Positions 2,463 through 61,796 of a DNA stretch of 64,000 nt are shown in pieces. Both the position numbers and the translations under genes were made by a program. This DNA is from Escherichia coli. GTDB lineage: Bacteria; Pseudomonadota; Gammaproteobacteria; Enterobacterales; Enterobacteriaceae. Positions within the stretch are counted from its first letter, which is position 1, and the number at the start of each line of letters is the position of its first letter. The stretch lies in NCBI RefSeq assembly GCF_003790525.1, contig NZ_CP033635.1; one strand, given 5' to 3'. The notes under the pieces were generated by a model. It had not been told where the DNA came from. It worked only from the letters and a program-made list of their open reading frames with translations, and ran no database searches.

Positions 2463-2703
2463 GAAAAAAGCCAGGTTAAGAATGGGAAAACGCCGTCATG
2501 GTAATAAAATTGTAAATTTATGGAAAACGAAACGGCACGATACGTTAAGTAATTGAGAGAATTGTAGTCGTAACGGCAAGAAATGCTCCACATTTGAGAA
2601 AATAATGATTACCATTCCCATTTATAACAAGAGCGTAACGATGATTACGCTTAGCGAAGCATTGTGAAGCAGCAAAAATATCGGTTCATCAAAGGGAGTC
2701 GTC

Positions 2704-3765
2704 ATGCATTTACGTCATCTGTTTTCATCGCGCCTGCGTGGTTCATTACTGTTAGGTTCATTGCTTGTTGCTTCATCATTCAGTACGCAGGCCGCAGAAG
2801 AAATGCTGCGTAAAGCGGTAGGTAAAGGTGCCTACGAAATGGCTTATAGCCAGCAAGAAAACGCGCTGTGGCTCGCCACTTCGCAAAGCCGCAAACTGGA
2901 TAAAGGCGGCGTGGTTTATCGTCTTGATCCGGTTACTCTGGAAGTGACGCAGGCGATCCATAACGATCTCAAGCCGTTTGGTGCCACCATCAATAACACG
3001 ACTCAGACGTTGTGGTTTGGTAACACTGTAAACAGCGCGGTCACGGCGATAGATGCCAAAACGGGCGAAGTGAAAGGACGTCTGGTGCTTGATGAGCGTA
3101 AACGTACCGAAGAAGTGCGTCCGTTGCAGCCGCGTGAGCTGGTAGCTGATGATGCCACGAACACCGTTTACATCAGTGGTATTGGTAAAGAGAGCGTGAT
3201 TTGGGTCGTTGATGGCGAGAATATCAAACTGAAAACCGCCATCCAGAACACCGGTAAAATGAGTACCGGTTTAGCGCTGGATAGCAAAGGCAAACGTCTT
3301 TACACCACTAACGCTGACGGCGAATTGATTACCATCGACACCGCCGACAATAAAATCCTCAGCCGTAAAAAGCTGCTGGATGACGACAAAGAGCACTTCT
3401 TTATCAACATCAGCCTTGATACCACCAATCAGCGTGCATTTATCACCGATTCTAAAGCGGCAGAAGTGTTAGTGGTTGATACCCGTAATGGCAATATTCT
3501 TGCGAAGGTTGCGGCACCGGAATCACTGGCTGTGCTGTTTAACCCAGCGCGTAATGAAGCCTACGTGACGCATCGTCAGGCAGGTAAAGTCAGTGTGATT
3601 GACGCGAAAAGCTATAAAGTGGTGAAAACGTTCGATACGCCGACTCATCCGAACAGCCTGGCGCTGTCTGCAGATGGCAAAACGCTGTATGTCAGTGTGA
3701 AACAAAAATCCACTAAACAGCAGGAAGCTACCCAGCCGGACGATGTGATTCGTATTGCGCTGTAA
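2704..3765 (+). CDS. yncE: Secreted beta-propeller protein YncE
   Basis: 353-aa ORF with N-terminal signal peptide and repeated propeller blades; position and length match yncE. Confidence 0.9.
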   Translation: MHLRHLFSSRLRGSLLLGSLLVASSFSTQAAEEMLRKAVGKGAYEMAYSQQENALWLATSQSRKLDKGGVVYRLDPVTLEVTQAIHNDLKPFGATINNTTQTLWFGNTVNSAVTAIDAKTGEVKGRLVLDERKRTEEVRPLQPRELVADDATNTVYISGIGKESVIWVVDGENIKLKTAIQNTGKMSTGLALDSKGKRLYTTNADGELITIDTADNKILSRKKLLDDDKEHFFINISLDTTNQRAFITDSKAAEVLVVDTRNGNILAKVAAPESLAVLFNPARNEAYVTHRQAGKVSVIDAKSYKVVKTFDTPTHPNSLALSADGKTLYVSVKQKSTKQQEATQPDDVIRIAL

Positions 3766-6261: not shown

Positions 6262-6845
6262 TTATTTTTCCCATCGATTTCGCCCACTTTCTTTCGCCCG
6301 GTATAACGCAGCGTCGGCATCTGAAATAATTTGTTCAGCCGTTTTTGCGGGAGCAGAACAGGTAATCCCCTGACTAACCGTAACGAATGCATTAACAGCA
6401 GATGCCTGATGCGGGATAGCTGCCAGTTTAAGTTCTTGCTTCACTCTGGCTGCTACCGTCTCTGCTTCCGGCAATGTTGCATTAAAAAGTATGATGACAA
6501 ACTCTTCGCCACCATAACGGACAACAACATCCTCCGACTGGCGAGTTGAACGCTGTAGAGCGTCGGCAACTTGTATTAGACAACGATCCCCAGCAGGATG
6601 CCCGTAAGTGTCGTTGTAACGTTTAAAAAAATCGACATCCAGCATAATAAGAGCAAATGACCCGCCGTTATCTATCGCGTCGTGTAAGATACTGTTCATT
6701 GCACGTCGGTTTGCTATCCCAGTTAAAGGATCACGATGTGCTAATGCATCAAGGCGATTAATTAACTGGTTGTTATAACTGTTTTGTACCCATGCTTCTT
6801 CAAACCAACGTAACAAAATGAGTCGCCCACCATATAGCGCCAGTG

Positions 6846-6853
6846 AAAAAATA
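6846..6853. repeat. IS1 target-site duplication, left copy (aaaaaata)
   Basis: Same 8-bp sequence directly flanks both IS1 ends. Confidence 0.6.
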
Positions 6854-6868
6854 GGTAATGACTCCAAC

Positions 6869-7372
6869 TTATTGATAGTGTTTTATGTTCAGATAATGCC
6901 CGATGACTTTGTCATGCAGCTCCACCGATTTTGAGAACGACAGCGACTTCCGTCCCAGCCGTGCCAGGTGCTGCCTCAGATTCAGGTTATGCCGCTCAAT
7001 TCGCTGCGTATATCGCTTGCTGATTACGTGCAGCTTTCCCTTCAGGCGGGATTCATACAGCGGCCAGCCATCCGTCATCCATATCACCACGTCAAAGGGT
7101 GACAGCAGGCTCATAAGACGCCCCAGCGTCGCCATCGTGCGTTCACCGAATACGTGCGCAACAACCGTCTTCCGGAGCCTGTCATACGCGTAAAACAGCC
7201 AGCGCTGGCGCGATTTAGCCCCGACATAGCCCCACTGTTCGTCCATTTCCGCACAGACGATGACGTCACTGCCCGGCTGTATGCGCGAGGTTACCGACTG
7301 CGGCCTGAGTTTTTTAAGTGACGTAAAATCGTGTTGAGGCCAACGCCCATAATGCGGGCTGTTGCCCGGCAT
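6869..7372 (-). CDS. insB: IS1 InsB (catalytic part; InsAB' is made by -1 frameshifting)
   Basis: 167-aa ORF matching IS1 InsB; overlaps insA in the -1 frame as in canonical IS1. Confidence 0.9.
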
Positions 7373-7566
7373 CCAACGCCATTCATGGCCATATCAATGA
7401 TTTTCTGGTGCGTACCGGGTTGAGAAGCGGTGTAAGTGAACTGCAGTTGCCATGTTTTACGGCAGTGAGAGCAGAGATAGCGCTGATGTCCGGCGGTGCT
7501 TTTGCCGTTACGCACCACCCCGTCAGTAGCTGAACAGGAGGGACAGCTGATAGAAACAGAAGCCAC
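7291..7566 (-). CDS. insA: IS1 InsA (transposition repressor / N-terminal part of the transposase)
   Basis: 91-aa [42 protein letters not shown]… is the IS1 InsA sequence. Confidence 0.92.
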
Positions 7567-7621
7567 TGGAGCACCTCAAAAACACCATCATATACTAAAT
7601 CAGTAAGTTGGCAGCATCACC

Positions 7622-7629
7622 AAAAAATA
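7622..7629. repeat. IS1 target-site duplication, right copy (aaaaaata)
   Basis: Same 8-bp sequence directly flanks both IS1 ends. Confidence 0.6.
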
Positions 7630-8142
7630 CACCATACAACAGCAAAATGAATATTGATCTGTTGATTAAGCATAAGACTCGCTATTGGAGTGGTGAACCA
7701 TAAGGGAATGACAAATGCGAGCAATGATGGGGTATGGAAATAAAGTGCGATAACGCCACTAAGCATTAATAATACACATAGTGGATAAGCAAACTGCAGC
7801 GTCCAGTACGCAATAAAGTGATAACTACACCATGACCATAGCAGGCTCAGGGCAACTAATAGCACCTGGATAGGTAATGTTTTTTGCCGAGGGATGAGTA
7901 GTAAACCACTGCAAATCAGCAGAATACCCGTTGCAGATATATCAATAGAATGTATAAGGCTTTTTTCATTTAACCAGGGTGGAGTAAGGTCATTAAACAG
8001 AACACGGCGCAGCAAAATTATCAATGCAAAACTGACATTGATAAAAGCAAACCATGGCAAACTAATCGTCATGCCGCGAATAACCATATCGCGGCGGGTT
8101 TTCCATGAGTGATGCGTTTTTCTTCGTTCAGCCATTTTTTAA

Positions 8143-48225: not shown

Positions 48226-49761
48226 TTAGTGTTTCTTGTCATTCATCACAATATAGTGTGGTGAACGTGCACGCGGGTGCAGGAAGAAGTGACCTTTTGG
48301 TGCGTTCTGACTGTTGATTGGCTCCAGAGTAACGCCGGTATTCCCTTTGCCTTTACGATCATGAACAGCATAGAGAATAAAGGGCAGGGCAAGTACCACC
48401 AGGAAACTCACGACCAGTAATTCAACATACATATCGGTAGAGTCACCCTGGATGTTATCCGGCGGCAGGAAGGAAACAATAAACGCCATAATTGAAGTCA
48501 GCAGACCGACAATAGCCACGACCAGTTTCACCCCTTTACCACCAGGGATATTAAATGTGCGTTTTAAGTCAGGATGTTTAAGAACCAACACAATGTAGCC
48601 AATAAACAGCATGAAATAAGCACACAGATAAATCACCACCGTCAGTGCCAGTGCGATCAGGAAGGACATGTTGTTACCGCCACCGGTATTGGTGAGGATG
48701 ATCAACGCGATAGAAGTAATCACCAGCTGCGAAATGACCAGCGTTACCGGTACGCCATTTTTGTTCATTTTAGCGAATGCTGCTGGCAGCAGGTTTTTCT
48801 GCGCTGTGACATACATCCCGCGAGAAGGACCAACAATCCAGGAAGCGATTTCCGCCAGAACACCCAGCAACAGCAGTGCGGAGATCACGCGAACCGTCCA
48901 CTCAATTTCCGGTGCCACATGTGACATCAGAACGGTAAAGGTTTGCATTACCCCTGCGGAGAGGTTGATTTCATTACCCGGAATGACCATCGCAATAGAC
49001 AAACCGCCAACAGAGCTTAAGCAGATTGCCGCTACCATCAGCAGTAACATAGCCAGTGGATAGTCGCGCCCGGGGTTGCTCATTTCATTGACGTGGGTTG
49101 CGGAAGCTTCAACGCCCATATAACTCAAAATGAAGGCAACAAATACAACCAGGGTGCCCACTTTAGAGAAGTCAGGGAAGAAGGTCTTCGCATCCATTTC
49201 GATAGCAACGGGGGCACCGGAGTGCAGATAAATAGCCGCTAATGCGATCAAAATAAATGCAGGTAACAGGATACCGGCGAAGAAGCCAACTTTAGCAATG
49301 CGCGCCGTGTATTTCGTGCCACCAAACTGCGTTAATGCCAGCGCCCAAAGAATGATGAGTGCTGCAATAGTTTTGGTAATGGGGTCTTCATTCAGCGCTG
49401 GCCATTTCAGGATGTAGGAGAGTGCCCCTAACACGAAATAGAGCATCGGAATAAAACCAATGGCGATTTGCAGATAACCAAATGAGATCGCTGCAAATCC
49501 CCATCTCGGCCCCAAAGTATTTGATACCCAGGCGAAGACGCCACCTTCTTCCCAGCCGTCGACGGTAGCCATTTCCGCAGCACAAAGTCCCACGGGAATA
49601 AACCATAAAATCCCGCCTAATAGCAGGAAGAAGACTAATGAAAAGCCCGATGTTGCGAAGGTAGGGTATTCATAAACAGCCATTACCATCGATGCCGTTA
49701 TGGCAAAGAATCCGAGTAATGTGAGCTGCTTAGCTTTACCTGTCTGTACTGATGTAGCCAT
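48226..49761 (-). CDS. gadC: Glutamate:GABA antiporter
   Basis: 511-aa APC-family transporter directly downstream of gadB. Confidence 0.92.
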
Positions 49762-49916
49762 ATTATCCCCCTAAAACGGTATTCCTGTCGGAACCGCACC
49801 TGTTTTGTTCTGAAGCGTATTCAGAACAATATTTTCCGTTGCTAATGCCAGTGAACAGACTTTGGAAATTGTCCCGAAACGGGTGTGTTTCGGGACACCG
49901 TTACCGTTAAACGTTA

Positions 49917-51317
49917 TCAGGTATGTTTAAAGCTGTTCTGCTGGGCAATACCCTGCAGTTTCGGGTGATCGCTGAGATATTTCAGGGAGGCTTTGTAGTC
50001 TTCCAGCAACAGTTCAGCAAAGTCCATTTCGAAGCCGCGACGACACATAATGCGCATCACCACGATGTCAGTGGCTTCACCGCCGAGAGTGAAGGCCGGA
50101 ACCTGCCAGCCGCGCAGACGCAGACGTTCAGAGAGGTCGTAGAGGGTGTATCCCGGATCTTCACCATCTTTCAGTTTGAAGCAAACCGCCGGGATGCCTT
50201 CGTCCGGGCGACCGGTACAGATAAACTCATACGGTCCCAGTTTGGCGATTTCATCCGCCAGATAAGCGGCAACCTGGTAGGAAGCGTTCTGTACTTTGGT
50301 ATAGCCTTCACGACCGAGGCGCAGGAATTCATAGTACTGTGCAATCACCTGACCCGCCGGGCGGGAGAAGTTGATGGCGAAAGTCCCAATCTGACCGCCG
50401 AGGTAGTCAACGTTGAACACCAGTTCCTGCGGCAGCGCTTCTTCATCACGCCAGATAACCCAGCCGCAGCCCAGCGGAGCCAGACCGAATTTATGGCCTG
50501 AAGCACTGATCGATTTCACACGCGGCAGGCGGAAGTCCCAGACGATATCCGGGGCGACGAACGGTGCCAGGAAGCCACCGCTGGCGGCGTCGATGTGCAT
50601 GTCGATGTCGATACCGGTGTCGGCCTGGAATTTATCCAGCGCATCGTGCAGCGGCTGCGGGAACTCATAGTTACCGGTGTAGGTCACGCCGAAAGTCGGC
50701 ACCACGCCGATGGTATTTTCGTCGCAGGCTTCAATCATGCGTTTCGGGTCCATAAACAACTGACCGGGGCGCATAGGGATCTCACGCAACTCCACATCCC
50801 AGTAGCGGGCGAATTTATGCCAGCAGATTTGCACCGGACCGCACACCAGGTTTGGTTTATCCGTTGGTTTGCCTGCAGCTTCCATACGCTTGCGCCAACG
50901 CCATTTCATCGCCATCCCGCCAAGCATACAGGCCTCGGAAGAACCAATGGTGTTGGTGCCAACGGCCTGACCATTTTTCGGCGCAGGCGCATGCCACAGA
51001 TCGGCAACCATGTTTACGCAACGCAGGTCGATGGCTGCGGATTGCGGATATTCTTCTTTGTCGATCCAGTTTTTGTTAATGGATAAATCCATCAACTTGT
51101 GGACGTTTTCGTCGTCCCAGGTCTGGCAGAAAGTGGCCAGGTTCTGACGAGCGTTGCCATCAAGATATAATTCGTCATTGATAATCTGAAATGCGACATC
51201 GTCGCGCATTTCGTGCAGCGGAAAACGTTTTGATTCTGCGATAGTGGAAATAGACTTTGCACCAAAACGTGAATCGAGTAGTTCCGACCTTAAATCCGTT
51301 ACTTGCTTCTTATCCAT
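49917..51317 (-). CDS. gadB: Glutamate decarboxylase beta (PLP-dependent)
   Basis: 466-aa product from [18 protein letters not shown]…; PLP-lysine context ([10 protein letters not shown]). Confidence 0.92.
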
Positions 51318-51396
51318 TTTAAACTCCTTAAAATGATTGGATCGCATTAAAAAAGTAGGATTTATCGATAAAGTAAGCAAGTGCAAAGGACTCGTG

Positions 51397-51416
51397 TTTA
51401 AATAACAAAATCCTAA
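51397..51416 (-). promoter_or_regulatory. GAD box (GadE/RcsB site) upstream of gadBC
   Basis: Minus-strand sequence ttaggattttgttatttaaa matches the 20-bp GAD box, about 80-100 bp upstream of the gadB ATG. Confidence 0.7.
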
Positions 51417-51678
51417 TGTTATTTATCGCGAGATATTATGCGAATTATATTTTATCATTGAAAATCAATATATTATTGAATTCTTGGGTGGTGGCAAGGT
51501 GTTTTATGCTGTTATTTTTATGCACTTTCTACGCCTCCTGAATTATCACGTAAAAATCAGACCTTAAAATATCACTATTAGCACTCGGCTATTATTTTGA
51601 ACGCATTTATAAAATTATTACATAAAAATGGCGAATATTGCTAAAATCCCCGCCAACGAGGTGTTGACGGGGCTGTTA

Positions 51679-54474
51679 TTATTTTGGCAATAATACTCCG
51701 GTATAGGTATTCACCGGATGAGAAAGATATTGTTTAACGGCAGTGTTAACATTCTCTACCGTCATTTGTTTCAATAATTGCTCCTGCTCAGTCCATGCTG
51801 CAGGATCGTCATATTGAATAAGACTATTTACAATGGTGTTCGCTAATTGTTGAACGCTACGCTGTTGGATATCGAGGCTGCGCTGAACGTTTTGCTGGTA
51901 TTCATTCAGTTCTTGCTCACTGATCCCTTTAGCCAGGCGCTTAACCATCACTTCATTCGCTAACGTTAACAGTTCATCATGTCGTTCTGGTTGACAAGTA
52001 AAAGCCAGCAAATGACTGATATCTTTGGCCTGAGGATCAACCGAGAGGCGAGAAGAAACGCTGTATGCTCCAGATGCCTGTTCACGAATATTAACGCGTA
52101 GATCTTTTGCCAGTGCGACGTTAAAAGCATCGAGCGCCATACGCGTCTCCAGATTTACAGGTGTCCGGGAATCATAACGCTTCCACTGTGAAACCTGTGC
52201 CACAGGTTCATTTTGTTCTTTTACAGTAACCGATGCGTTGTCCGTCGCGCGAGTTAATGGTTTACCTGCGGCTAATGGCGAATCAGAGTGTTTGATTGAT
52301 CCTAAGTAACGCGTAATTAACGCCACGAGTTTGTCTTCTGCGACATTACCGACAATGACAAAGGTGATATCCGCTGGAGATGAAAACAACTGGCGATCGG
52401 CAGCCAGCGCATCTGCGGCAGTAAACTGTGCAATCTGATTTTCTTGCAGTAATTTCGTGCGGTCATCAGCATAGCGCGTCTCATACATCTGCTGGGCGAA
52501 TTTCTCCGCTGGACGCTGGTCGAGCGTTTTCAACGCCTGAATTTGAGCATTTTGTAGCGATGCCCAAATATTATCGTTAATCGTGCTGTGGGTGATTCGC
52601 TGGTTAATCAACTGGAAACCAGGTTCAGGGTTATTAGTCCGCGCGCTAACAGAGAGCAATGTATTCATGCCACTGACTTTACTGCTCATGGTTACCGAGT
52701 TTTCCGCACTCCAGCGTTTCAGGCTGGAAGAGGAGAGTTCACCAACGCCGCTTCCGCTTACTGCTTTATTTGCCAGCGCGATAAGTGATTTTTGCTGCGC
52801 AGGGAAACTTAAATCGCCTTTATTAGATACGGCAGTAATTTGTAGCTTTTGCTCTTCACCCGCGGATTTTGCCAGAATAACCCTGGCACCATTGGAAAGT
52901 GTTAATGATGTCAGATTCTCAGCCAGCGTTTCTTTGCTGCTAATTTCCGCCTGTGGGTCAGCGTCTACTGTTAACGATAAATTTCTGCCTGGGAAGATGT
53001 AAGCCGCCAGCTTTTTGTTGGCGTACTCTTTTTCCAGCGCCAGGATAGCCGCAGGAGACAATGCTTTTTTGGCGGCAACCTCATTGTTTACCATTTGCTC
53101 CCAAAATGCGTCCTGGTTCTTTCTTAACTGCTGCCATTTTTCCGCCAGACTTTGCACGGTAATTTGCTGCCACAGACGTTTCGAAAGTTGATATGTCTCT
53201 TCCGGCGACAAGAACGGCGTATTATTTAATGAGCTGGATGCCAGGCGACTGGTCAGCATACGTAAATCACGCTCAGCTTGCTGATCAACCGCATTTTTCA
53301 GCCAGGTAAGGCGGGTAGATTTAACATCATCGAGTTCTTCAGCAGAAAAGCCATGCTGATCAATGGTTGCCAACTCTGCCATTAATGCATTCGCAGCATC
53401 CTGCATATTATCGTCTTGTGCATTTACACGGAAAAACAGCGACTGATAATCGGGTGCAATTTTGACGCTGCGCGCAGTGCCGCCAGAAATAGTCTTCAAC
53501 TCGCCCGACTGTATGCGTTCTTGCAGACGTTGGTTGAACAGCTGAACTAACATGCTCCATTCAGCTTGTTCGATAAAGCTTTGCTCATCGCTCACTTGCA
53601 CCATTGGCAGGCGATAATAGAGTGCGATGCCGTTCACCCGGTTTTCTTTATCATTGATGATATTAAAGCGCAGGTGGTTTTCGGCTTTTGTCGGCCAGAC
53701 GCGATTTTCAGCTGCTTTGTTAGCCGGAAGCTTACTTAAATTATCCTTTATCAGCGCCAGCGCTTCTTTACTGTCGATATCGCCGACCACAATAAAGGTC
53801 ATATTATTTGGTTGATACCAGCGTTGATAAAATTGGCGCAATTGTGCCGGTGTGACCGTGGCGACGGTATCCATCAGGCCGATAGGTTCACGGTCTAAAT
53901 TACGGGTATTTGCCAGCAGGAAAGGGCGGCGCGCCTGAGAGGTGCGCCATTTTGCATCCTGATGGGCACGCCATTCCTCAGTAATTACGCCACGTTCAGC
54001 GTCTACTTCGAGTTTTTCAAAGGTTGCGGCATTACTCCATTCACTGAAGATTGCCATCACTTGTTGCAGATTTTGTTTCTGCGTAGTCGGCAAACTCACC
54101 TGATACACTGTTTCGTCATAGCTGGTATAGGCATTAACATCGCGACCAAAACGAAGGCCCATTGACTCAAATGTTTCGATGACTTTATTACCCGGCCATG
54201 TTTTTGTGCCGTTAAACATCATATGTTCTACAAAATGAGCCACGCCGCGCTCATTGTCCTCTTCCTGCAATGAACCGGTATGAATTTGCAGCCATAAATT
54301 TACCTGATCCTTTGGTTGAGCATGCGGATAAATCAGATATCGCAAGCCATTGTCCAGTTGCCCGGTAATTAACTTTTCATCCTGCGGTAAGGCGGCGGCA
54401 ATCAGTCGCCCGGGGAGCAACAGAGTTGCCACTAACGTCAGTAAGAAACAGAGGTTTCTCATAATTATCTCCAT
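51679..54474 (-). CDS. pqqL: Periplasmic M16-family zinc metallopeptidase
   Basis: 931-aa ORF with signal peptide and inverzincin motif HFVEH…E (…GVAHFVEHMMFNGT…). Confidence 0.9.
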   Translation of the reverse strand: MEIIMRNLCFLLTLVATLLLPGRLIAAALPQDEKLITGQLDNGLRYLIYPHAQPKDQVNLWLQIHTGSLQEEDNERGVAHFVEHMMFNGTKTWPGNKVIETFESMGLRFGRDVNAYTSYDETVYQVSLPTTQKQNLQQVMAIFSEWSNAATFEKLEVDAERGVITEEWRAHQDAKWRTSQARRPFLLANTRNLDREPIGLMDTVATVTPAQLRQFYQRWYQPNNMTFIVVGDIDSKEALALIKDNLSKLPANKAAENRVWPTKAENHLRFNIINDKENRVNGIALYYRLPMVQVSDEQSFIEQAEWSMLVQLFNQRLQERIQSGELKTISGGTARSVKIAPDYQSLFFRVNAQDDNMQDAANALMAELATIDQHGFSAEELDDVKSTRLTWLKNAVDQQAERDLRMLTSRLASSSLNNTPFLSPEETYQLSKRLWQQITVQSLAEKWQQLRKNQDAFWEQMVNNEVAAKKALSPAAILALEKEYANKKLAAYIFPGRNLSLTVDADPQAEISSKETLAENLTSLTLSNGARVILAKSAGEEQKLQITAVSNKGDLSFPAQQKSLIALANKAVSGSGVGELSSSSLKRWSAENSVTMSSKVSGMNTLLSVSARTNNPEPGFQLINQRITHSTINDNIWASLQNAQIQALKTLDQRPAEKFAQQMYETRYADDRTKLLQENQIAQFTAADALAADRQLFSSPADITFVIVGNVAEDKLVALITRYLGSIKHSDSPLAAGKPLTRATDNASVTVKEQNEPVAQVSQWKRYDSRTPVNLETRMALDAFNVALAKDLRVNIREQASGAYSVSSRLSVDPQAKDISHLLAFTCQPERHDELLTLANEVMVKRLAKGISEQELNEYQQNVQRSLDIQQRSVQQLANTIVNSLIQYDDPAAWTEQEQLLKQMTVENVNTAVKQYLSHPVNTYTGVLLPK

Positions 54475-54518
54475 GCGAAAACCGGGCGAATTTACCCGGT
54501 TAAGTAAAATCCGAACTA

Positions 54519-56891
54519 TTAAAATTTCATGCTGACATCAAGCCAGAAAGTACGGCCACTGGCGTAGGTCGCCACACCGGTATTCGTTGTATCAACAGCG
54601 GTTTTGCTATCCAGTACATTGAGAATATCGGCACTGAACGTCAGGTTTTGTTGTTTCAGAAATTGTGGCGTCCAGGACAAGCGGGTGTCCCAGGTCAGGC
54701 TGCTATCCAGTTTTTCGTCAACATACTGCTTGTAATCTGAATATTCGCTGATGTATTGCGCATTCGTCTTACCCAGGATAATGCGAGCTTTACGCGCTTC
54801 TTGCCAGGTCAGCGTATTCGCCCACACCAACCCGCTCGGTTGATGCGTGAAATCCATGTTTAAGGAGATCTTTAATGGATTATTAAAATCCGCCACTGGA
54901 ACGCTATCGTAAGAGACCAGATTACCGTTATAAACCACCTGGTTATCACCGGTATTGCTCTCCTCATAACCATTGTTTAACGACAAGTTGCCCTTGCTCT
55001 TGATATAGCTAAAGACAATTTGCGGGTTAATATCTACCTGGCTGATATGCAGGGGTTCGGCCAGTTCAAAACTGAGGTTGAACGAATGCGTTTTGGTTTT
55101 ACCGTCGTTGTTATATTCAGTAATGGTGGTTTTAGTCGCGCTGTCGGTACGACTGCTTTTACTGATTTGATCATGCGCTTCACGGTAAACATAGTTTGCA
55201 CGCGCAATAACGTTCTTACCGATTTTCTGCTGCAACCCCATTGCCAGTTCATCGTTATAAGGCGTTTTCAAATCCTGATAACGCGTCAGGGTTTTATTGC
55301 CTGATACCGATTCCGTCCAGCTATTGCGGATATCACGTAATCCCATATCAAGAATATTCCCGCCATAGTAACGGTTATAACCTGCGGTAATCATTGAGGT
55401 TTGATCAGCAAAAATATCCCATTCCGTCATAAAGCGCGGGGAGATATTGTGGTTTGACAGATAGTTGTCATAGTCATACCGCACGCCGGGCATTAATGAC
55501 ACATTACGCCAGCTAATGCGATCCGCCATATACAGCGTGTAGTTGTCAATTCCCAGGCTGCCTTTACCTTTATGGTAAATGGTATGGTTAGTTTTCTTTC
55601 CGGCAGCATTAATCACATAGGATTCAGACTGGTTATGGCGTTCAGTCCATGCATCGGAATAGATGTATTCCGCGCCGAAGTAGGGTTGATGCGAAACATT
55701 ACCCACGGTGAATTTTTGCCAGTCCAGGCGTGTTTTGAAGGTGTAATTATCTACAGCCTGGGAAATGTGTCCTAATCCGCCACGGGTGCAACGCCCTGTA
55801 ATATCACCATATGTACATGAAAGTTCGGTGTACCAGATGTCATGATCGTGACGGGTATAATCACTAATATGATCCCAACCAACGGTGGTACGCAGTTTGG
55901 CCCATGCGAGCTGGGTATCCATATCCCATGCCAGACCATAGGATTTATTACCCATTTCGCGATCAGACTCCGGGAAGGTGCTGGTATTATAATCACGGCT
56001 GGAGCCGGTATATTTTAAGGTTAAATCGTGGGTAAAGCGGTCGCTGGCAAACCAGGTAAATTTGCTCAATGCAGTATCGATAACGTTTTTATACTGTGCC
56101 CGGCCGGCGACAATGCCGTCATTCGAAACATAATCCGCGCGGGTGATATCAGACTGGCGGCGCGATAAACCGGCGGTAACGCCAAAGTTATCAGCGAGTT
56201 CCTGATTAAACGACAAGGTATAAAAGTTCTTTTTAAAATCTGGAGAGTAATAAGTACTTCCTGAAGAACCTTGATTAAATGCGCTCTTGTTATTCTCATC
56301 GATATGCGATGTTAACCAGTCCGAACGCGTAGTGCGATAACCCAGTTTCACGCTGCTATCATCAGCGTTGAAGCGTTTGATCTTTGCATCAATTACCCCG
56401 CCATTGAAGCGACCGAATTCAACCGGCACAAAACTGTCATAAAGCGTCACATTGTCCAGTAAGCTGACATCAAGATAATACCCCTGTGACATCCCGCTAA
56501 TATTGGTTGCACTACTGGCATCGGACTCATTCGCTGGGTTCAGGTTATTCGTTGCACTAATACCGTCAATCAAATAGGCATTCTGGTAGGGCGACGCACC
56601 GTGAATAGAGATTTTCTCCGGGCGAATATCTCCCTGGTTCAATGAGGTACTTTGCGTTGAATCCATGCGTACCGCAGGGTTGGTTCTCAGCAGATCGCTG
56701 ATATTGCCATTCCCGGTCGGTAAACGCTCGATGCTTTCACTGGTGTAATGCGTGTTGCCGTTTACGGGTACAGGGACAGGAGCATAGACCGTCATCTCTT
56801 CAAAAACATGCATGTACATATTTTTGTCATCGACGGCCTGCGCTACATCAGCGCCACATAAAATGACGCCAGGAATAAGAACTCGCTTCAT
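54519..56891 (-). CDS. yddB: TonB-dependent outer-membrane receptor
   Basis: 790-aa ORF with signal peptide, plug and barrel, and C-terminal …DVSMKF. Confidence 0.9.
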   Translation of the reverse strand: MKRVLIPGVILCGADVAQAVDDKNMYMHVFEEMTVYAPVPVPVNGNTHYTSESIERLPTGNGNISDLLRTNPAVRMDSTQSTSLNQGDIRPEKISIHGASPYQNAYLIDGISATNNLNPANESDASSATNISGMSQGYYLDVSLLDNVTLYDSFVPVEFGRFNGGVIDAKIKRFNADDSSVKLGYRTTRSDWLTSHIDENNKSAFNQGSSGSTYYSPDFKKNFYTLSFNQELADNFGVTAGLSRRQSDITRADYVSNDGIVAGRAQYKNVIDTALSKFTWFASDRFTHDLTLKYTGSSRDYNTSTFPESDREMGNKSYGLAWDMDTQLAWAKLRTTVGWDHISDYTRHDHDIWYTELSCTYGDITGRCTRGGLGHISQAVDNYTFKTRLDWQKFTVGNVSHQPYFGAEYIYSDAWTERHNQSESYVINAAGKKTNHTIYHKGKGSLGIDNYTLYMADRISWRNVSLMPGVRYDYDNYLSNHNISPRFMTEWDIFADQTSMITAGYNRYYGGNILDMGLRDIRNSWTESVSGNKTLTRYQDLKTPYNDELAMGLQQKIGKNVIARANYVYREAHDQISKSSRTDSATKTTITEYNNDGKTKTHSFNLSFELAEPLHISQVDINPQIVFSYIKSKGNLSLNNGYEESNTGDNQVVYNGNLVSYDSVPVADFNNPLKISLNMDFTHQPSGLVWANTLTWQEARKARIILGKTNAQYISEYSDYKQYVDEKLDSSLTWDTRLSWTPQFLKQQNLTFSADILNVLDSKTAVDTTNTGVATYASGRTFWLDVSMKF

Positions 56892-56928
56892 TTATTTATA
56901 TCTCCGTACAGCAGGGCTTTTATTGTTT

Positions 56929-58614
56929 TTATAAAACCGCGCTAATGTCACAAATATCATCGGCCAGGTTCCAGACACCGGGTTGATGTGTAACCATAAT
57001 GACGCCGCTTGTGGGGAGTTTTTCTCGCACTAAACGCAGTAAGCGGATTGCCTCTTGTTCCTCAAGATGAGAGGTAGTTTCGTCAAGAAATATCCATTTC
57101 GGACGTCGTAAAATTAATCGAGCCAGGGCGATACGTTGTTTTTCGCCGCTGGAAAGAATATCTCCCCAGCGATCGTGGTCATGAATACGCGTAGCCAATT
57201 TCCCCAGCCCAACCTGATGCAGTACTTCACTCAACGATTTATCGTCTACGGACAGGGGAAGTGCTTTACAAATAATCTCTTTCAGTAAGCCGGTTTTGAT
57301 TAACGGTGTTTGTGACACATACCAACTGTCAGCAGGAGAAGAAATATCACCTTTAAACCACGGCCAGCAGTGGGATAATGTTTTAAGCAGTGTGGTTTTT
57401 CCCGTACCAGAGTAACCTTTCAGCAATAGCCATTTGCCTGGCAAAACATGAAAGTTCAGGTTCTCTAATATGATCTTATTATCAGGAGTACGAATACTCG
57501 CGTCAGCCACTTGTACCGCATGTTGGCAATTTTTAGGCTTATTCGTAGGGCGCTGTTCGGTGAGTTGATGGAACTCAGACAAGCGATCGATAACCGCAGC
57601 CAGTACAGCAAGTTCATCATATTTATAAATAAACCAGCTTAAATTGTTCGATACCAGCATAAATGCCTGGCGCGATTTCATCAGTCCGCCCAGATTGATC
57701 TGTCCGCTAATAAACTGCGGCAATAACAGAAAGTAGGGAAGAACGCTAAGCGAGCGCGAATAAATATTCTGCCAGTAATCAAGCCACCGCTGACGATTCA
57801 TTAAACGATGCCAGTTCTCTTTAATGGTATGAAAATTTTCGCTCAACTCCTGGCGTTGTAGAGACTCAGCATTGCTTAGCGCAATCAGTTCTGCCTGCTT
57901 ATTATGCTGCACAAGATTAGTTCGAAATGTCGCTTCGCTACGTTGTTTTTCCACATTAAGCGGACGAATACGTTTACCAACCTTATGGGTAAATAAAGTT
58001 CCACCGATCACAATGAGCACGACGGTATAGACCATATACCCCTGGATATTCCATTCAGTTCCACCAACAGTGAATGAGAGCGTACCCGCGCTTTGCCAAA
58101 GAATAACGGTAAAGGTGATCAGCATGCTAAGTGACTGGATGAAGCCAAATGAAAGACTGAGCGTTTTGCTGATCAGTAAGAGAATGTCTTCAGCGATACG
58201 TTGGTCAGGGTTATCTGTATTTTTATGCTCGCCGTAGATCTGCGTGAAGTAGTAGTTTTTATCTGCAAACCAGCGATTAAGGTAGTAATCTGTTAACCAT
58301 TCGCGCCAGCGAATAGTCAGTAGTTTAATTAACCATGTTTTGTTTACGGATATTAATACAAAGATCCCCAGCAGGGCAGGGAACCAAAGGACAAGCTGCC
58401 AAAGCTTATCAGTTTCTTTCTGGCTTAGCGCATTGAAAAAATCATTATTCCAGTCGTTTAACCAGACCTGAATTTTAACCACGCCAAGGATCATGGCGAG
58501 GATAATAATGATTAACAACACTGAAGTTTTATTATTCTTACGCAGCCAAAAGGGCTTCAGCAGACAGAGATACTTTGCTATCAACATACAAAACGTAATG
58601 GGAATGGTTATCAT
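56929..58614 (-). CDS. yddA: ABC transporter, fused permease/ATPase (SbmA/BacA-like N-terminal domain)
   Basis: 561-aa ORF: N-terminal TM domain plus C-terminal ABC ATPase (GYSGTGKTT Walker A; LSSGEKQR signature). Confidence 0.88.
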   Translation of the reverse strand: MITIPITFCMLIAKYLCLLKPFWLRKNNKTSVLLIIIILAMILGVVKIQVWLNDWNNDFFNALSQKETDKLWQLVLWFPALLGIFVLISVNKTWLIKLLTIRWREWLTDYYLNRWFADKNYYFTQIYGEHKNTDNPDQRIAEDILLLISKTLSLSFGFIQSLSMLITFTVILWQSAGTLSFTVGGTEWNIQGYMVYTVVLIVIGGTLFTHKVGKRIRPLNVEKQRSEATFRTNLVQHNKQAELIALSNAESLQRQELSENFHTIKENWHRLMNRQRWLDYWQNIYSRSLSVLPYFLLLPQFISGQINLGGLMKSRQAFMLVSNNLSWFIYKYDELAVLAAVIDRLSEFHQLTEQRPTNKPKNCQHAVQVADASIRTPDNKIILENLNFHVLPGKWLLLKGYSGTGKTTLLKTLSHCWPWFKGDISSPADSWYVSQTPLIKTGLLKEIICKALPLSVDDKSLSEVLHQVGLGKLATRIHDHDRWGDILSSGEKQRIALARLILRRPKWIFLDETTSHLEEQEAIRLLRLVREKLPTSGVIMVTHQPGVWNLADDICDISAVL

Positions 58615-58904
58615 TAGCGAAAATTTATTGTGCCATCCAATGATTATCTATGGCAATGATATACTGATGAAATTTATTTAAGTATCATTTAACAATATGA
58701 AATATAAAGAAATATTTTATTTTCAGTGGTTATGGTTATGCTATTGATAATCAAGGGTATTGCTAATGCCCTGACGCATACCTCGTAAGCCAGGATTTTC
58801 GCAAAGGAAGATGATGAAGACGAAACACCCGACAGGAATTTATGTCGGGTGCCTTGTTAAGGTCATAAGAAGGAGGCTAAGAATGGAGCTAAGGGGGAGC
58901 GTTA

Positions 58905-60062
58905 TTAATTATTCTCCATTTGTTTTGCAACATCCATAATGTGGTAAAGCGGTACTCTGTTCTTAGCTAACTCCACCATGGCGTTCATATAAGGTACCAT
59001 GGTTGAAAAAAGGATTTTATAACCTTCGCAAAAATAGGAAACAGTCTCATTGTTTACTTTAGTAATACGATGCTTAGGGCAACCACCATTGCAGATAGGT
59101 TTATATGCACATTGCTGACATTTCGCTGAAATCCGTTTTTTTTGCGCTGTCAGTTGAACACTGTTCATCGTTTTGAGTTCAGATTTATTAATGTTTCCAA
59201 TTTTGTACTGTGGATAGACAAAATGGTCGCATTCGTAAATGTCTCCATTACTTTCAACAACCAGATTATCCTTGCAGGACGCCTGGAAAATACAACTGGT
59301 ATGCCCATTCCCCAAAAAACGGCTGACAAAGCTTTCAAACTGACGGATGAAAATTTCACCCACATCGTTTTTAACCCATTGCATAAAAATGGTTGACATA
59401 AACTTGCCATAAGCCGTAGGAGGCACAGAAAAATCAATGATACGGAATGTGTTCTCACTATGACCACTGAAATCAATATTCGGCGTCCCGGTTTCGAGCA
59501 ATTCGATAAATTGCATATGTTTACTGCCGATAGATTTTAAAAAATGATAAACCTCAAGAGGGTAATGGACATTAACGTTATTAATGACGGTTAACGTATT
59601 AAACTCTACTTGATATGATTTCAGACGCTCGATGGCTGCTATCACTTTTGCAAAAGTACCGTTACCTGAATTACTGCGTCTGTAACGGTCATGTAGCTCC
59701 TGGGGTCCATCGATCGAGATACCAACCAGAAACTCATGTTCTTTGAGAAAGGCACACCATTCATTATTCAATAAAATGCCATTCGTTTGTAATGCATTAA
59801 AAATACGTTTTTGGCCTGCATAGCGTTGTTGATAGTGAATAACTTTACGGAAAAAATCCAGGCCAGCCAGAGTGGGTTCACCGCCTTGCCAGGTAAAATA
59901 GACCTGATTGCCAGACGCTGCGATATATTGTTTGATGAACTCTTTCAGAGTGCTGTCATCCATCCATTTTTCATGAGTAAACTGCGACTCTTTTTCAAGG
60001 TAAAAACAGTAATCACATTTGAGATTACATTGAAAACTGGAGGGCTTGGCTGTAACGTGCAT
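58905..60062 (-). CDS. ydeM: Radical-SAM anaerobic sulfatase-maturating enzyme homologue
   Basis: 385-aa product from [19 protein letters not shown]… (CxxxCxxC radical-SAM motif) with C-terminal auxiliary Cys clusters. Confidence 0.88.
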
Positions 60063-60113
60063 CGCTATCTCGCTCAATAAGGCGGCGGAAAAATCCGCCG
60101 CATGAAGGTTTAG

Positions 60114-61796
60114 TTATTTCGCTTCGCTTAGTGCTTTCTTGATATTGTTAAACTTCTCCTGATTTACCTCGCTAAGTGGTGGTTGGCTGCTGTCGATAAA
60201 CTCTCTTACCACGCCTTGCATCTCTTTAACGACCTGCGGATTGGCGGCGGCAAGGTTATCTTTTTGCTGTAGATCCGTCAGTTTGTATAGACCTAACTGA
60301 TTGTTTTCTACTGTATAGACAAGCGAATAATCGTTATTTCTTACCGTATAAGAGAATTGGCTTAAATCCTCGGTGTTGGGGTTATGCGGGTAATCGTCTG
60401 ACTGATGGCGGACAAATTTGTGGTAATTATCCCAGAATGGAATATTTTCCTCGTCAAACCAGTGAGAATAAGAGGTTATCCAGGTCAGATTTTTATGTGG
60501 CTCGCCTTGTTTCTTATCTTGCAACCACGGCAGCAAGGAAACGCCATCCAGCTTAAGGTCTTTTGGAATGCTGATATCGGCTGCATCAAGAGCTGTCGGG
60601 TAGAAATCCATTGCGGAAATCAGCTTGTCATAATTACCGGGTTGAAGTTTTCCTTTCCACCACATAAACATTGGGGTGTGAGTACCGCCAGGATAGGTCT
60701 GACTCTTATAGCCTTTTTGCGCCCCGTTCAGCGGCAGAGGACCATCGATAACCGCACCATTATCGGAGGTAAAGAGAATAATAGTATTGTCATACTGTCC
60801 GTTTTTCTTCAGTTGTTCGAGAATGCGTTTTACACCCTGATCAACAGAATAAACGGAAGCGTAGTAGTTATCTGCTGTTTGACTACCGGTATTAAATTGC
60901 TTCTGATATTGCTCCGGTGCAGGATTATCATTTGGCAGGTGCGGAGCATTATAAGCCAGGTAAAGCATAAAAGGCTGGTCAAGTGTTTTGGCACGATCAA
61001 CAACGCCAATTGCCTCATCGGTTAACTGATCGCTGATATAACCTTTTGCGGGGACGCGTTCACGGTTTTTGAACAGTGAAGGGGAGTTGTAATATGCCGT
61101 TCCTGCAGCGTGGAATCCCATAAAGTAATCAAAGCCACGGTTTTGAGGTTGCCATTCTTCCGCAGAAAATGTGGTGAAGTTGTCATGATAGTCACGCGTT
61201 TGTTTATCTTCCGGTACCGGCACATTACTGATTTTTGACAAGTGCCATTTACCTACTGCTGCAGTGTAATAACCATGATTCTGGAATAATTCAGGCAAGA
61301 AAGTTTCTGTTAGCGGAATACCATCCTGAGCATCGGTATTGGAATAGACACCAAAGCGGGCGGGCGCTCGACCGGTCATTATTGCAGCGCGGGAGGGGCC
61401 GGAAACACCGTGCGCCACATAGCCGTTAGTAAAACGCACGCCTTCATCCATTAATGAAAGGAGCGTCGGCGTTGATTTTTGCGCAGCTTCAATGGCTTTA
61501 TCTATCCCTATTTTGTAGGTATCGACAACTTCACGATTTTCCATTGTTTTTGGGTCAAAAGATCCCTTATCAAAAGGAAGTTGTCCATAACCAAGATCAT
61601 CCATGGTCAGTACGATAATATTTGGCTTTCCTTTGGTACTGTATTCAGTCGGCGTAAAGTCTGAGAAAGCAACGTTTGTTTTGGTTGCTTTCAGCTTTAC
61701 ATCATCTGCCGCATGAGCAGCAAATGCAGCCATACCAGATGCCAGTATCAAAGATATCGAGGTACTTACGACACTTTTCTTTAATGCAGACTTCAT
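60114..61796 (-). CDS. ydeN: Secreted Ser-type sulfatase
   Basis: 560-aa product from MKSALKKSVVSTSI… (signal peptide); sulfatase signature S-x-P-x-R present (…HGVSGPSRAAIMTGR…). Confidence 0.88.
   Translation of the reverse strand: MKSALKKSVVSTSISLILASGMAAFAAHAADDVKLKATKTNVAFSDFTPTEYSTKGKPNIIVLTMDDLGYGQLPFDKGSFDPKTMENREVVDTYKIGIDKAIEAAQKSTPTLLSLMDEGVRFTNGYVAHGVSGPSRAAIMTGRAPARFGVYSNTDAQDGIPLTETFLPELFQNHGYYTAAVGKWHLSKISNVPVPEDKQTRDYHDNFTTFSAEEWQPQNRGFDYFMGFHAAGTAYYNSPSLFKNRERVPAKGYISDQLTDEAIGVVDRAKTLDQPFMLYLAYNAPHLPNDNPAPEQYQKQFNTGSQTADNYYASVYSVDQGVKRILEQLKKNGQYDNTIILFTSDNGAVIDGPLPLNGAQKGYKSQTYPGGTHTPMFMWWKGKLQPGNYDKLISAMDFYPTALDAADISIPKDLKLDGVSLLPWLQDKKQGEPHKNLTWITSYSHWFDEENIPFWDNYHKFVRHQSDDYPHNPNTEDLSQFSYTVRNNDYSLVYTVENNQLGLYKLTDLQQKDNLAAANPQVVKEMQGVVREFIDSSQPPLSEVNQEKFNNIKKALSEAK

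Follow-up and report, generated by a model that had tools for sequence, protein, structure and literature searches.

The yddA-yddB-pqqL operon of Escherichia coli: a Fur-controlled locus encoding the components of a probable Fus-like protease-associated import system

What might be imported, and in what form, by an ABC transporter, a TonB-dependent receptor and an M16 protease that are encoded side by side in Escherichia coli? The genes in question lie on the minus strand of a 64,000-nucleotide window (the whole stretch of DNA that was analysed), where the open reading frame list gives three co-oriented frames, all starting with ATG (Table 1). They are separated by 37 bp (yddA/yddB, 56892-56928) and 44 bp (yddB/pqqL, 54475-54518), exactly the gaps reported in the first-pass annotation, and, given their strand, are transcribed from high to low coordinates in the order yddA, yddB, pqqL, with gadB on one side and ydeM on the other. 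The DNA from 51000 to 59200 is 100% identical to that of E. coli SMS-3-5 and other strains, in which it is annotated with the same three names that the first-pass annotation had used; the window is 100% identical in SMS-3-5-type strains and ~98% identical in most other E. coli strains. The locus is, with virtual certainty, the E. coli yddA-yddB-pqqL operon; it differs from the operon described in K-12 and CFT073 (Grinter et al. 2019, PLoS Genet, PMC6793856; Subashchandrabose et al. 2013, PLoS Pathog, PMC3855560) only as an allele, with the same genes, order, flanks and published Fur box.

Table 1. Features of the yddA-yddB-pqqL locus, in window coordinates
Feature	Coordinates	Strand	Description
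yddA	56929..58614	-	inner-membrane type IV ABC transporter, SbmA/BacA-like membrane domain and C-terminal ATPase (annotated 561 aa)
yddB	54519..56891	-	FusA-family TonB-dependent outer-membrane transporter, 790 aa
pqqL	51679..54474	-	FusC-like periplasmic single-chain M16 zinc metalloprotease, annotated 931 aa
Fur box	58600..58618	.	15/19 consensus matches
Candidate sigma-70 promoter	58627..58656	-	consensus scan and conservation in L009
yddB/pqqL stem-loop	54478..54500	-	folding; candidate leaky terminator or mRNA-stabilising hairpin
Intrinsic terminator of operon	51643..51672	-	folding; begins 7 nt past pqqL stop codon

The operon and its assignment as a Fus-like protease-associated import system have been described before. 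The first-pass annotation, which mentioned an earlier proposal of this kind and rated the finding as not new, was right on both counts: Grinter et al. (2019; PMC6793856) used the same name and model, and earlier papers report co-transcription, Fur control, the crystal structures of YddB and PqqL, the location of PqqL in the periplasm and a contribution to fitness in bacteraemic mice. What is added here is small, namely a probable start of yddA further downstream, a conserved hairpin between yddB and pqqL, and the deletion of the operon in a fraction of complete E. coli genomes.

The three products are of the types first noted from the letters alone, and Pfam domains agree. YddA, an ABC transporter of the inner membrane, has a membrane domain of the SbmA/BacA type and matches ABC_membrane_2 (PF06472, 8.8e-44), SbmA_BacA (PF05992, 2.9e-33) and ABC_tran (PF00005, 1.4e-17). 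Its ATPase motifs are a Walker A (GYSGTGKT, residue 400) and a signature (LSSGE, residue 487), and LDE 510-512 and H543 are invariant in six homologues. Translation probably begins at the ATG at 58587, 27 nt downstream of the annotated start, giving 552 rather than 561 amino acids. YddA is not an SbmA orthologue, as it scores 84 bits against an SbmA equivalog cut-off of 492.

YddB, a TonB-dependent transporter of the outer membrane, has 22 strands, and its extracellular cavity is unusually large. It carries a TonB-dependent receptor Plug domain (4e-07) and matches its own structure, 6OFR, with 1726 bits over residues 30-790, followed by the ferredoxin receptor FusA (4ZGV, 5e-80). Its signal peptide ends in AQA, its C-terminal residue is Phe, and a TonB-box-like EEMTVYA at about residues 31-37 is found again in homologues; a Shine-Dalgarno GGAG (56905-56902) lies 10 nt ahead of its ATG. 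In the crystal structure the cavity measures ~28 Å and, like that of FusA, would fit a small globular protein (PMC6793856).

PqqL is a FusC-type zinc protease, active and periplasmic; it has Peptidase_M16 (7e-41) and two Peptidase_M16_C domains (3.2e-54), a signal peptide, and the motif HFVEH at residues 80-84. The M16 assignment and the length of 931 amino acids in the first-pass annotation were borne out, but "secreted" should read periplasmic, because of the signal peptide and the published fractionation (PMC6793856). Like YddB, it matches its own PDB structures (6OFS and 6OFT) at ~1700-2000 bits, then 9LDY (1.6e-81) and FusC 6B03, 6B05 and 6BRS (~1e-58). The ribosome-binding site is better at another in-frame ATG, at 54462, than at the annotated start. 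The protease closes round a protein-sized chamber and prefers F/Y-F/Y-V/A; human ferredoxins, globins and a plant ferredoxin were not cleaved (PMC6793856).

Do these genes act as one unit, and under which signal? The first-pass annotation had named a Fur box upstream of yddA as the feature to look for, and one is present at the yddA promoter. Read on the coding strand it is GCTAATGATAACCATTCCC, which matches exactly the putative Fur box published earlier, GGGAATGGTTATCATTAG (PMC3855560). No site in the window scores higher (p 0.002 when the intergenic region is shuffled); one site ties with it, in the pqqU(yncD)-yncE intergenic region, which serves as an internal positive control since yncE is a known Fur target (PMC4676285). 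L009, an E. fergusonii-type locus, retains the box, and in three further homologous loci the best Fur match of the locus lies just upstream of the yddA homologue (L001 and L002, 16/19; L003, 15/19). The candidate sigma-70 promoter consists of a -35 TTGCCA (58656-58651), an 18-nt spacer and an extended -10 TG-n-CACAAT (58632-58627); L009 keeps the -35, the spacer length and TGGCACAAT, while the surrounding sequence has diverged.

A strong terminator was found only after pqqL in the folding scan of the locus (CCCCGUCAAC-ACCUC-GUUGGCGGGG, then AUUUU; -18.6 kcal/mol, z = -3.35, with equally good folds in 2 of 200 shuffles), and L009 likewise has a hairpin there. The yddA/yddB gap, when folded, gave no stable structure. 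Between yddB and pqqL, a stem of ACCGGGU and GCCCGGU with a 6-nt loop is followed by UUU (-13.4 kcal/mol); with z = -1.4 it is weak on its own, and at the same position L009 has a stronger hairpin with a U-tract (-22.2 kcal/mol, z = -3.65). Judged by folding, it may be a leaky terminator or an mRNA-stabilising hairpin, and transcripts read through it (PMC3855560).

This hairpin, together with many weak internal promoter-like sites in a consensus scan, would suit the view that yddA, yddB and pqqL are neighbours by position only, each with a function and signals unrelated to those of the others. However, such sites are no commoner than chance (19 promoter-like against 16.6 in shuffles, 10 terminator-like against 8.4), and the trio is conserved in six homologous loci with unrelated flanks. 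RT-PCR amplicons cross both junctions, showing a single mRNA; urine induces yddA, yddB and pqqL by more than 30-fold, and loss of fur derepresses all of them (PMC3855560). Fur binds upstream of the operon, with higher RNA levels in the presence of RyhB (PMC4676285). Independence is refuted by the published co-transcription, and the import interpretation, against which the first-pass annotation had set separate transcription and unrelated signals, therefore stands. We are highly confident that this is one Fur-controlled operon. The iron response itself is inconsistent, in that chelating iron was by itself not enough to induce the transcripts in CFT073 (PMC3855560), whereas bipyridyl chelation raised PqqL protein (PMC6793856).

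Among the nearest described systems is the ferredoxin uptake system of Pectobacterium (FusA, FusB, FusC and FusD), which shares a large-cavity TonB-dependent transporter (FusA 4ZGV), a periplasmic M16 protease of one chain that carries HxxEH (residues 80-84 of PqqL; FusC 6B03, 6.7e-59), an ABC transporter in the cluster and iron regulation (PMC6793856). It differs in that YddB and FusA are only ~24% identical and that PqqL leaves plant and human ferredoxins uncleaved (PMC6793856). It also differs in its dedicated TonB; no FusB homologue or other dedicated TonB was found in the E. coli cluster among its open reading frames and Pfam domains. FusB is needed by the Pectobacterium system for ferredoxin import. 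For YddA, the best solved relative in the PDB is Rv1819c of Mycobacterium tuberculosis (6TQE, 2.8e-66 over residues 35-552; also 6TQF), a type IV ABC transporter that takes up hydrophilic compounds and likewise fuses an SbmA/BacA-like membrane domain to an ATPase, but belongs to another organism and envelope and is unlinked to a TonB-dependent receptor or M16 protease. The proton-driven SbmA/BacA (SLiPT) peptide importers have a membrane domain homologous to that of YddA; unlike YddA, SbmA lacks an ATPase domain and runs on the proton gradient, and phylogeny derives it from a YddA-like ancestor (PMC13316013).

Taken together, we favour a Fus-like protease-associated import system of three genes repressed by Fur, with a probability of roughly 0.65 for the full mechanism. 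Under iron limitation, YddB would bind a small protein or polypeptide, probably iron-bearing and of host or gut-community origin, and pass it to the periplasm, powered by the general TonB-ExbBD of the cell since the cluster lacks a TonB of its own. PqqL would then engulf and cut the cargo, and YddA may carry a freed cofactor or peptide fragment into the cytoplasm. Import and cleavage of a protein or polypeptide are reasonably probable, and import by YddA of what the first two steps yield is slightly favoured. The literature reports no substrate, in agreement with the first-pass annotation, which had called it poorly defined.

The cargo might instead be an unstructured peptide, for instance a ribosomally made or an antimicrobial one, or a cofactor bound to a peptide, that YddB admits, PqqL trims and YddA imports in the manner of SbmA, BacA and BclA, in which case iron need not be the nutrient gained. 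Relatives of YddA do import peptides and other hydrophilic cargo, as the SbmA_BacA match and Rv1819c indicate, and B. cepacia needs its YddA homologue to take up the lasso peptide ubonodin (bioRxiv 10.1101/2022.03.09.483586); moreover, PqqL cuts short peptides with the F/Y-F/Y-V/A motif and none of the folded proteins tested (PMC6793856), and an E. coli pqqL fragment complemented Methylobacterium mutants in the processing of the PQQ-precursor peptide (cited in PMC3855560). In our small sample of ten YddB-homologue loci an M16 protease is always accompanied by an SbmA-type ABC transporter, and neither occurs alone (both present in six, both absent in four). Yet the YddB cavity and the PqqL chamber are protein-sized, the Fur control conserved among homologues points to iron, and no peptide substrate has been reported, so that we consider this reading unlikely. 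The same complementation, of pqqE/pqqF mutants, gave pqqL its name and, with a weak match to the PqqF model, suggested a PqqF-type protease in a cluster for PQQ production. This is effectively refuted: the score of 48 bits falls far short of the PqqF equivalog cut-off (320), the open reading frame list and domain search show no pqqA-E genes in the vicinity, E. coli does not make PQQ (PMC3855560) and imports it via PqqU/YncD, annotated elsewhere in the same window, and PqqL is periplasmic.

The direction of YddA is disputed, and its role as an importer is predicted from homology to Rv1819c. It could be an ATP-driven exporter of drugs or an endogenous compound that adjoins yddB and pqqL through shared regulation. 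It has a type IV "exporter" ABC fold and its remaining PDB matches are ABCD and ABCB exporters; in whole cells, yddA and acrB yddA deletions were reported to increase sensitivity to and accumulation of drugs, with inhibition by vanadate and including norfloxacin and ethidium for yddA, and YddA was called a multidrug exporter (PMC9728188). However, Rv1819c shares this fold yet imports, and a 2026 study still lists the YddA family as "of unknown function" (PMC13316013). Since yddA is first in the operon, deleting it may have polar effects on yddB and pqqL, and since the operon is Fur-repressed, expression in the rich medium of efflux assays should be low. The ABC gene also tracks the M16 protease in distant homologous loci, rearranged ones included, which is hard to reconcile with an unrelated efflux pump. 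We regard export as improbable.

Import by a receptor-protease-transporter trio is the reading we retain. The trio is kept in six of the ten loci (L009, L001, L002, L003, L005 and L006), at YddB identities from 87% down to 28%, with two different gene orders. In E. coli, the operon is deleted in ~15% of complete genomes, including one ST131 blood isolate, and is dispensable in some lineages. In iron-limited LB, deletion of yddB or pqqL caused no growth defect, even in the absence of all other TonB-dependent iron transporters (PMC6793856); in systemic infection of mice, yddB and pqqL mutants were less fit (PMC3855560).

The yddA-yddB-pqqL cluster forms a Fur-controlled single transcription unit that encodes a FusA-type outer membrane transporter (YddB), an active periplasmic FusC-type protease (PqqL) and an SbmA-fold ABC transporter (YddA), where FusA and FusC are the receptor and the protease of the Pectobacterium ferredoxin uptake (Fus) system. 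An ORF listing covering 49000-61500 returned three co-oriented ORFs with spacers of 37 and 44 bp, exactly where the first-pass annotation had placed them, with transcription running towards lower coordinates from yddA through yddB to pqqL (see table). The annotation had called the cluster a protease-associated import system that was not new, and it was right on both counts: Grinter et al. 2019 gave the system the same name by analogy with Fus (PMC6793856), and its genetics, regulation and structures are already published. Our finding is thus a correct re-identification of a system already described at these levels and not a new kind of system. Nothing in the window alters the published picture, nor does the window make the substrate or the role and direction of YddA more tractable.

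The G+C content is about 0.44–0.49 across the genes and 0.36–0.39 in the flanking intergenic regions. By megablast against 5,426 complete E. coli genomes, 51000-59200 is 100% identical to SMS-3-5 and others, in which the genes are annotated as pqqL, yddB and yddA between gadB and ydeM. In two otherwise window-identical strains (NZ_CP019392.1 and NZ_AP045773.1), yddA is split by an IS1 insertion and its pieces are annotated separately as "ATP-binding cassette domain" and "SbmA/BacA-like". Between pqqU and pqqL the window is 777 bp longer than SMS-3-5 because of an IS1 copy of its own, which splits a GGDEF diguanylate-cyclase gene.

Features of the yddA-yddB-pqqL region (window coordinates) and of homologue loci (coordinates within each locus; percentages are identities of the receptor to YddB)
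Feature	Coordinates	Strand	Description
yddA	56929-58614	-	561 aa, annotated ORF
yddB	54519-56891	-	790 aa ORF
pqqL	51679-54474	-	931 aa ORF
Candidate promoter of yddA	58656-58627	-	TTGCCA, 18-nt spacer, TG-n-CACAAT; TTGCCA/TGGCACAAT
Fur box at yddA	58600-58618		15/19 to the 19-bp consensus
Hairpin and U-tract between yddB and pqqL	54500-54478	-	-13.4 kcal/mol
Operon terminator	starts 7 nt past pqqL stop	-	10-bp G+C-rich hairpin, then AUUUU; -18.6 kcal/mol, z = -3.35
pqqU (yncD)	360-2462	-	TonB-dependent PQQ receptor; SMS-3-5 annotation
yncE	2704-3765	+	SMS-3-5 annotation
Fur site at pqqU-yncE	2601-2619		15/19; AATAATGATTACCATTCCC; divergent intergenic region
IS1 copy	~6854-7621		InsA-like ORF 7291-7566; InsB-like ORF 6869-7372; perfect terminal repeat 7599-7621
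GGDEF gene fragments	6262-6867; 7617-8135		split by the IS1 copy
L009 (E. fergusonii type)			87%; SbmA-type ABC, receptor, M16 protease
L001			61%; SbmA-type ABC, receptor, M16 trio
L002 (Orbaceae)			45%; SbmA-type ABC, receptor, M16 trio
L003			45%; SbmA-type ABC, receptor, M16 trio
L005	5465-15306		30%; order receptor-ABC-M16, preceded by TonB, ECF sigma factor and FecR
L006 (Muribacter muris)			28%; trio, ABC gene convergent
L011	5760-9487		31%; receptor adjoining CCP_MauG di-haem peroxidase; without protease and ABC
L012	7001-10652		30%; receptor adjoining CCP_MauG di-haem peroxidase; without protease and ABC
L013			26%; receptor adjoining TonB-like gene only
L004			32%; receptor by itself

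YddB has the plug, 22-strand barrel and TonB box of FusA-family TonB-dependent transporters. Its sole Pfam domain is the TonB-dependent receptor Plug (4e-07), no NCBIfam family was reached in the NCBIfam scan, and the sequence carries a signal peptide ending in AQA, a TonB-box-like EEMTVYA and a C-terminal Phe. At E≤1e-5, its PDB matches comprise its own structure (6OFR) and FusA (4ZGV, 5e-80). A canonical siderophore receptor was rejected, as neither a curated siderophore-receptor model nor the TonB_dep_Rec barrel matched and FusA is the sole non-self PDB match. The YddB crystal structure has a cavity of ~28 Å (PMC6793856).

PqqL likewise has the make-up of a FusC-like, single-chain, four-domain M16 protease, with one Peptidase_M16 and two Peptidase_M16_C domains in Pfam, an N-terminal signal peptide and an HxxEH zinc site (HFVEH, residues 80-84). 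After its own structures (6OFS/6OFT), the next PDB matches are another M16 peptidase (9LDY, 1.6e-81) and then FusC (6B03/6B05/6BRS, ~1e-58). Assignment to pitrilysin (M16A) was rejected (NF011681, 35.2 bits vs. a cut-off of 765). The protein is periplasmic with its signal peptide cleaved, is induced by bipyridyl and urine, adopts an open clam-shell in the crystal, prefers F/Y-F/Y-V/A as a peptidase, and leaves ferredoxins and globins uncleaved (PMC6793856); an M16 review of December 2025 gives its substrate as "n/a" (PMC12731061). Two in-frame ATGs, 12 nt apart (54474 and 54462), could start pqqL, of which only the second has a GGAG 6 nt upstream. Both the GGAG and the second ATG are kept in L009, the E. 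fergusonii-type locus, whose gene call (928 aa) begins at that second ATG, and the N-termini of distant homologues (MKIIKK..., MIKIIR...) are compatible with either start.

YddA belongs to the YddA/BclA type, joining a PF05992/PF06472 membrane domain to an ABC ATPase in which Walker A, signature, Walker B and H-loop are all intact. Pfam returned ABC_membrane_2 (8.8e-44), SbmA_BacA (2.9e-33) and ABC_tran (1.4e-17); Walker A (GYSGTGKT) lies at residue 400 and LSSGE at 487, and D511, E512 and H543 are invariant in six homologues. An SbmA/BacA (SLiPT) secondary transporter was rejected on the NF008306 score (84.4 bits vs. a cut-off of 492) and on the presence of the ABC_tran domain. The best solved relative is Rv1819c (6TQE, 2.8e-66), followed by ABCD-type transporters, and Rv1819c is also named as nearest structural homologue in an April 2026 paper that describes the YddA family as "of unknown function" (PMC13316013). 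Uptake of the lasso peptide ubonodin requires a B. cepacia YddA homologue (bioRxiv 10.1101/2022.03.09.483586).

The Fur box that the first-pass annotation had proposed to look for 5' of yddA was recovered by a full mismatch scan as the top-scoring match anywhere in the window; such a match has a chance of 0.002 in shuffles of the yddA-upstream intergenic region. The consensus gave no match at ≤3 mismatches, the site at the yddA promoter having four. The same site was published as a putative Fur box for CFT073 (PMC3855560), and an information-theory scan likewise picked it up (PMC2189734). The sole other 15/19 site in the window lies between pqqU and yncE and differs hardly at all from the yddA box in its right half; because Fur is known to target yncE (PMC4676285), the site between pqqU and yncE doubles as an internal positive control. 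The candidate promoter lies immediately upstream of the yddA box, and L009 conserves this box together with the -35 and the extended -10. Furthermore, the best Fur matches in the more distant trio loci L001 (16/19), L002 (16/19) and L003 (15/19) fall 60–90 bp upstream of the yddA homologue. Therefore, the recurrence of these boxes, together with the conservation in L009, indicates that iron control is a conserved property of the module. Iron-responsive expression is supported here at the sequence level, while Fur binding upstream of the operon, as well as higher RNA levels with RyhB (PMC4676285), and derepression (PMC3855560) come from the literature. In CFT073, the transcripts were not induced by iron chelation alone (PMC3855560).

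As annotated, yddA starts at an ATG (58614) that falls within the Fur box, with the predicted transcription start only ~6 nt away. The corresponding ATG of L009 leads to an in-frame TAG, a 1-nt indel is present in this part of the locus, and the L009 gene call uses the ATG equivalent to 58587; the N-termini of the homologues in L003, L005 and L006 align to Met10 of E. coli YddA. Taken together, these comparisons suggest that the true start is probably the ATG at 58587 and that the annotation is nine codons too long, in which case the Fur box, instead of "overlapping the start codon", would occupy the transcription start and 5' UTR.

Generic scans for promoters (19 vs. 16.6 in shuffles) and terminators (10 vs. 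8.4) did no better than shuffles, and these elements were judged instead by their conservation in L009 and by folding z-scores. In the yddA-yddB gap, which has no stable structure, a GGAG precedes the yddB ATG by 10 nt. The hairpin between yddB and pqqL has a stronger counterpart in L009 (8391-8420; -22.2 kcal/mol, z = -3.65) at the same position but with a different sequence, and might act as a leaky terminator or stabilise the mRNA. Rfam gave no match at E≤1 in 51000-59200, and the hairpin therefore lies outside described RNA families.

The YddB homologue search with contig look-ups yielded ten informative neighbourhoods; a Corticibacter homologue (P0039, 34% identity) has no contig on record and stands outside this sample. 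Linkage of receptor and protease extends beyond close relatives, with the trio present in L009, L001, L002, L003, L005 and L006, and all three proteins diverge in parallel across these loci. M16 protease and SbmA-type ABC transporter are both present at six of the ten loci and both absent from the other four, a small sample in which this joint presence and absence suggests that the transporter handles the product of the protease. These results agree with the survey of Grinter et al. 2019, including its peroxidase-associated branch and its loci without protease or ABC transporter (PMC6793856). Flanks are unrelated at every homologue locus; therefore, ydeM (a radical-SAM/SPASM maturase) and ydeN (a sulfatase) were rejected as cluster members.

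Measured against the Fus-like class of Grinter 2019, the cluster agrees in receptor, protease, linkage and Fur control. However, Pectobacterium Fus includes a dedicated TonB (FusB) in its cluster, whereas yddA-yddB-pqqL, flanked by gadB and ydeM/ydeN, contains no TonB_C ORF; in this it also differs from L005 and L013, where TonB-like genes occur with the homologues. L005 carries a full Fus-like set of TonB, ECF sigma factor, FecR, STN-domain receptor, ABC transporter and M16 protease.

Two further observations concern YddB-like sequences. An E. coli O146 contig (L008, 6001-8364) carries a second YddB-like receptor, 70% identical and a few kb from IS66 transposase genes, which may be a mobile paralogue; no yddA lies upstream of it, and the contig stops right after the receptor, so that the locus is uninformative on linkage. 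Many database "proteins" of 900–1200 aa from the homologue search (entries P0003-P0005, P0009-P0011, P0016, P0017 and P0035) fuse YddB parts to PqqL, YddA or neighbours, and probably arose through deletions, frameshifts or assembly joins in single E. coli genomes.

In the mechanism that we propose, YddB would, under iron limitation, import a small protein or polypeptide via the housekeeping TonB complex, PqqL would enclose and cut this cargo, and YddA would bring the fragment or cofactor set free in this way into the cytoplasm. No growth defect was seen in iron-limited LB (PMC6793856). The cargo might be a peptide and not a folded protein, which we consider unlikely, though with a real chance of being so. 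An exporter role for YddA, unrelated to the import chain, is improbable. One study with whole-cell assays calls E. coli YddA a multidrug exporter (PMC9728188), but its deletions hit the gene that heads a Fur-repressed operon and its cells were in rich medium, and therefore polarity and low expression are concerns in that report. Moreover, the ABC gene stays beside the protease even in rearranged and distant loci, which points to a shared pathway.

It is very hard to sustain that the cluster serves PQQ biosynthesis, with PqqL as a PqqF-like protease, given a TIGR02110 score of 48 bits vs. a cut-off of 320 and no pqqA-E genes nearby. Independent transcription of the three genes, which the first-pass annotation had named as the outcome that would overturn its reading, is barely credible, since RT-PCR detected one mRNA, urine raises the expression of all three genes more than 30-fold, and a fur mutation derepresses them (PMC3855560). 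Beyond the import chain from YddB through PqqL to YddA, we offer a doubtful extension, in which M16 protease and SbmA-type ABC transporter would be an obligate pair, a PqqL-made peptide fragment, possibly with a cofactor, would enter the cytoplasm rather than free iron, and the polypeptide taken up by E. coli would come from the gut or the host, whether or not it is an iron protein.

Of 5,405 genomes that gave a match, only 4,603 carry at least 80% of the operon, and about four of 30 evenly spaced ranks keep only the last 914–1163 bp of pqqL; a remnant of this kind is all that ~15% of complete E. coli genomes have left. A clean deletion in the ST131-O25b blood isolate CCUG 73778 (L007; NZ_CP041337.1, 7001-7924) has removed yddA, yddB and two-thirds of pqqL from its 5' end, and the pqqL remnant adjoins ydeM; a second strain (L014; NZ_CP146667.1, 3001-4164) has another deletion endpoint. 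As the endpoints differ, the operon has been lost at least twice. Such natural deletion contrasts with the fitness role reported for CFT073 bacteraemia, where yddB and pqqL mutants were outcompeted in mouse systemic infection (PMC3855560).

The probable yddA start, the placement of the Fur box with respect to the promoter, the joint occurrence of ABC transporter and M16 protease, and the natural deletion in ~15% of genomes could be useful for expression constructs and substrate screens. The locus is one of a small group of systems believed to carry whole proteins across the Gram-negative outer membrane, and in a mouse model of bloodstream infection the operon makes uropathogenic E. coli fitter (PMC3855560). 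If the obligate pairing of protease and transporter were true, repeated loss of the operon, including in ST131, would mark a niche-specific substrate and not a general virulence function.
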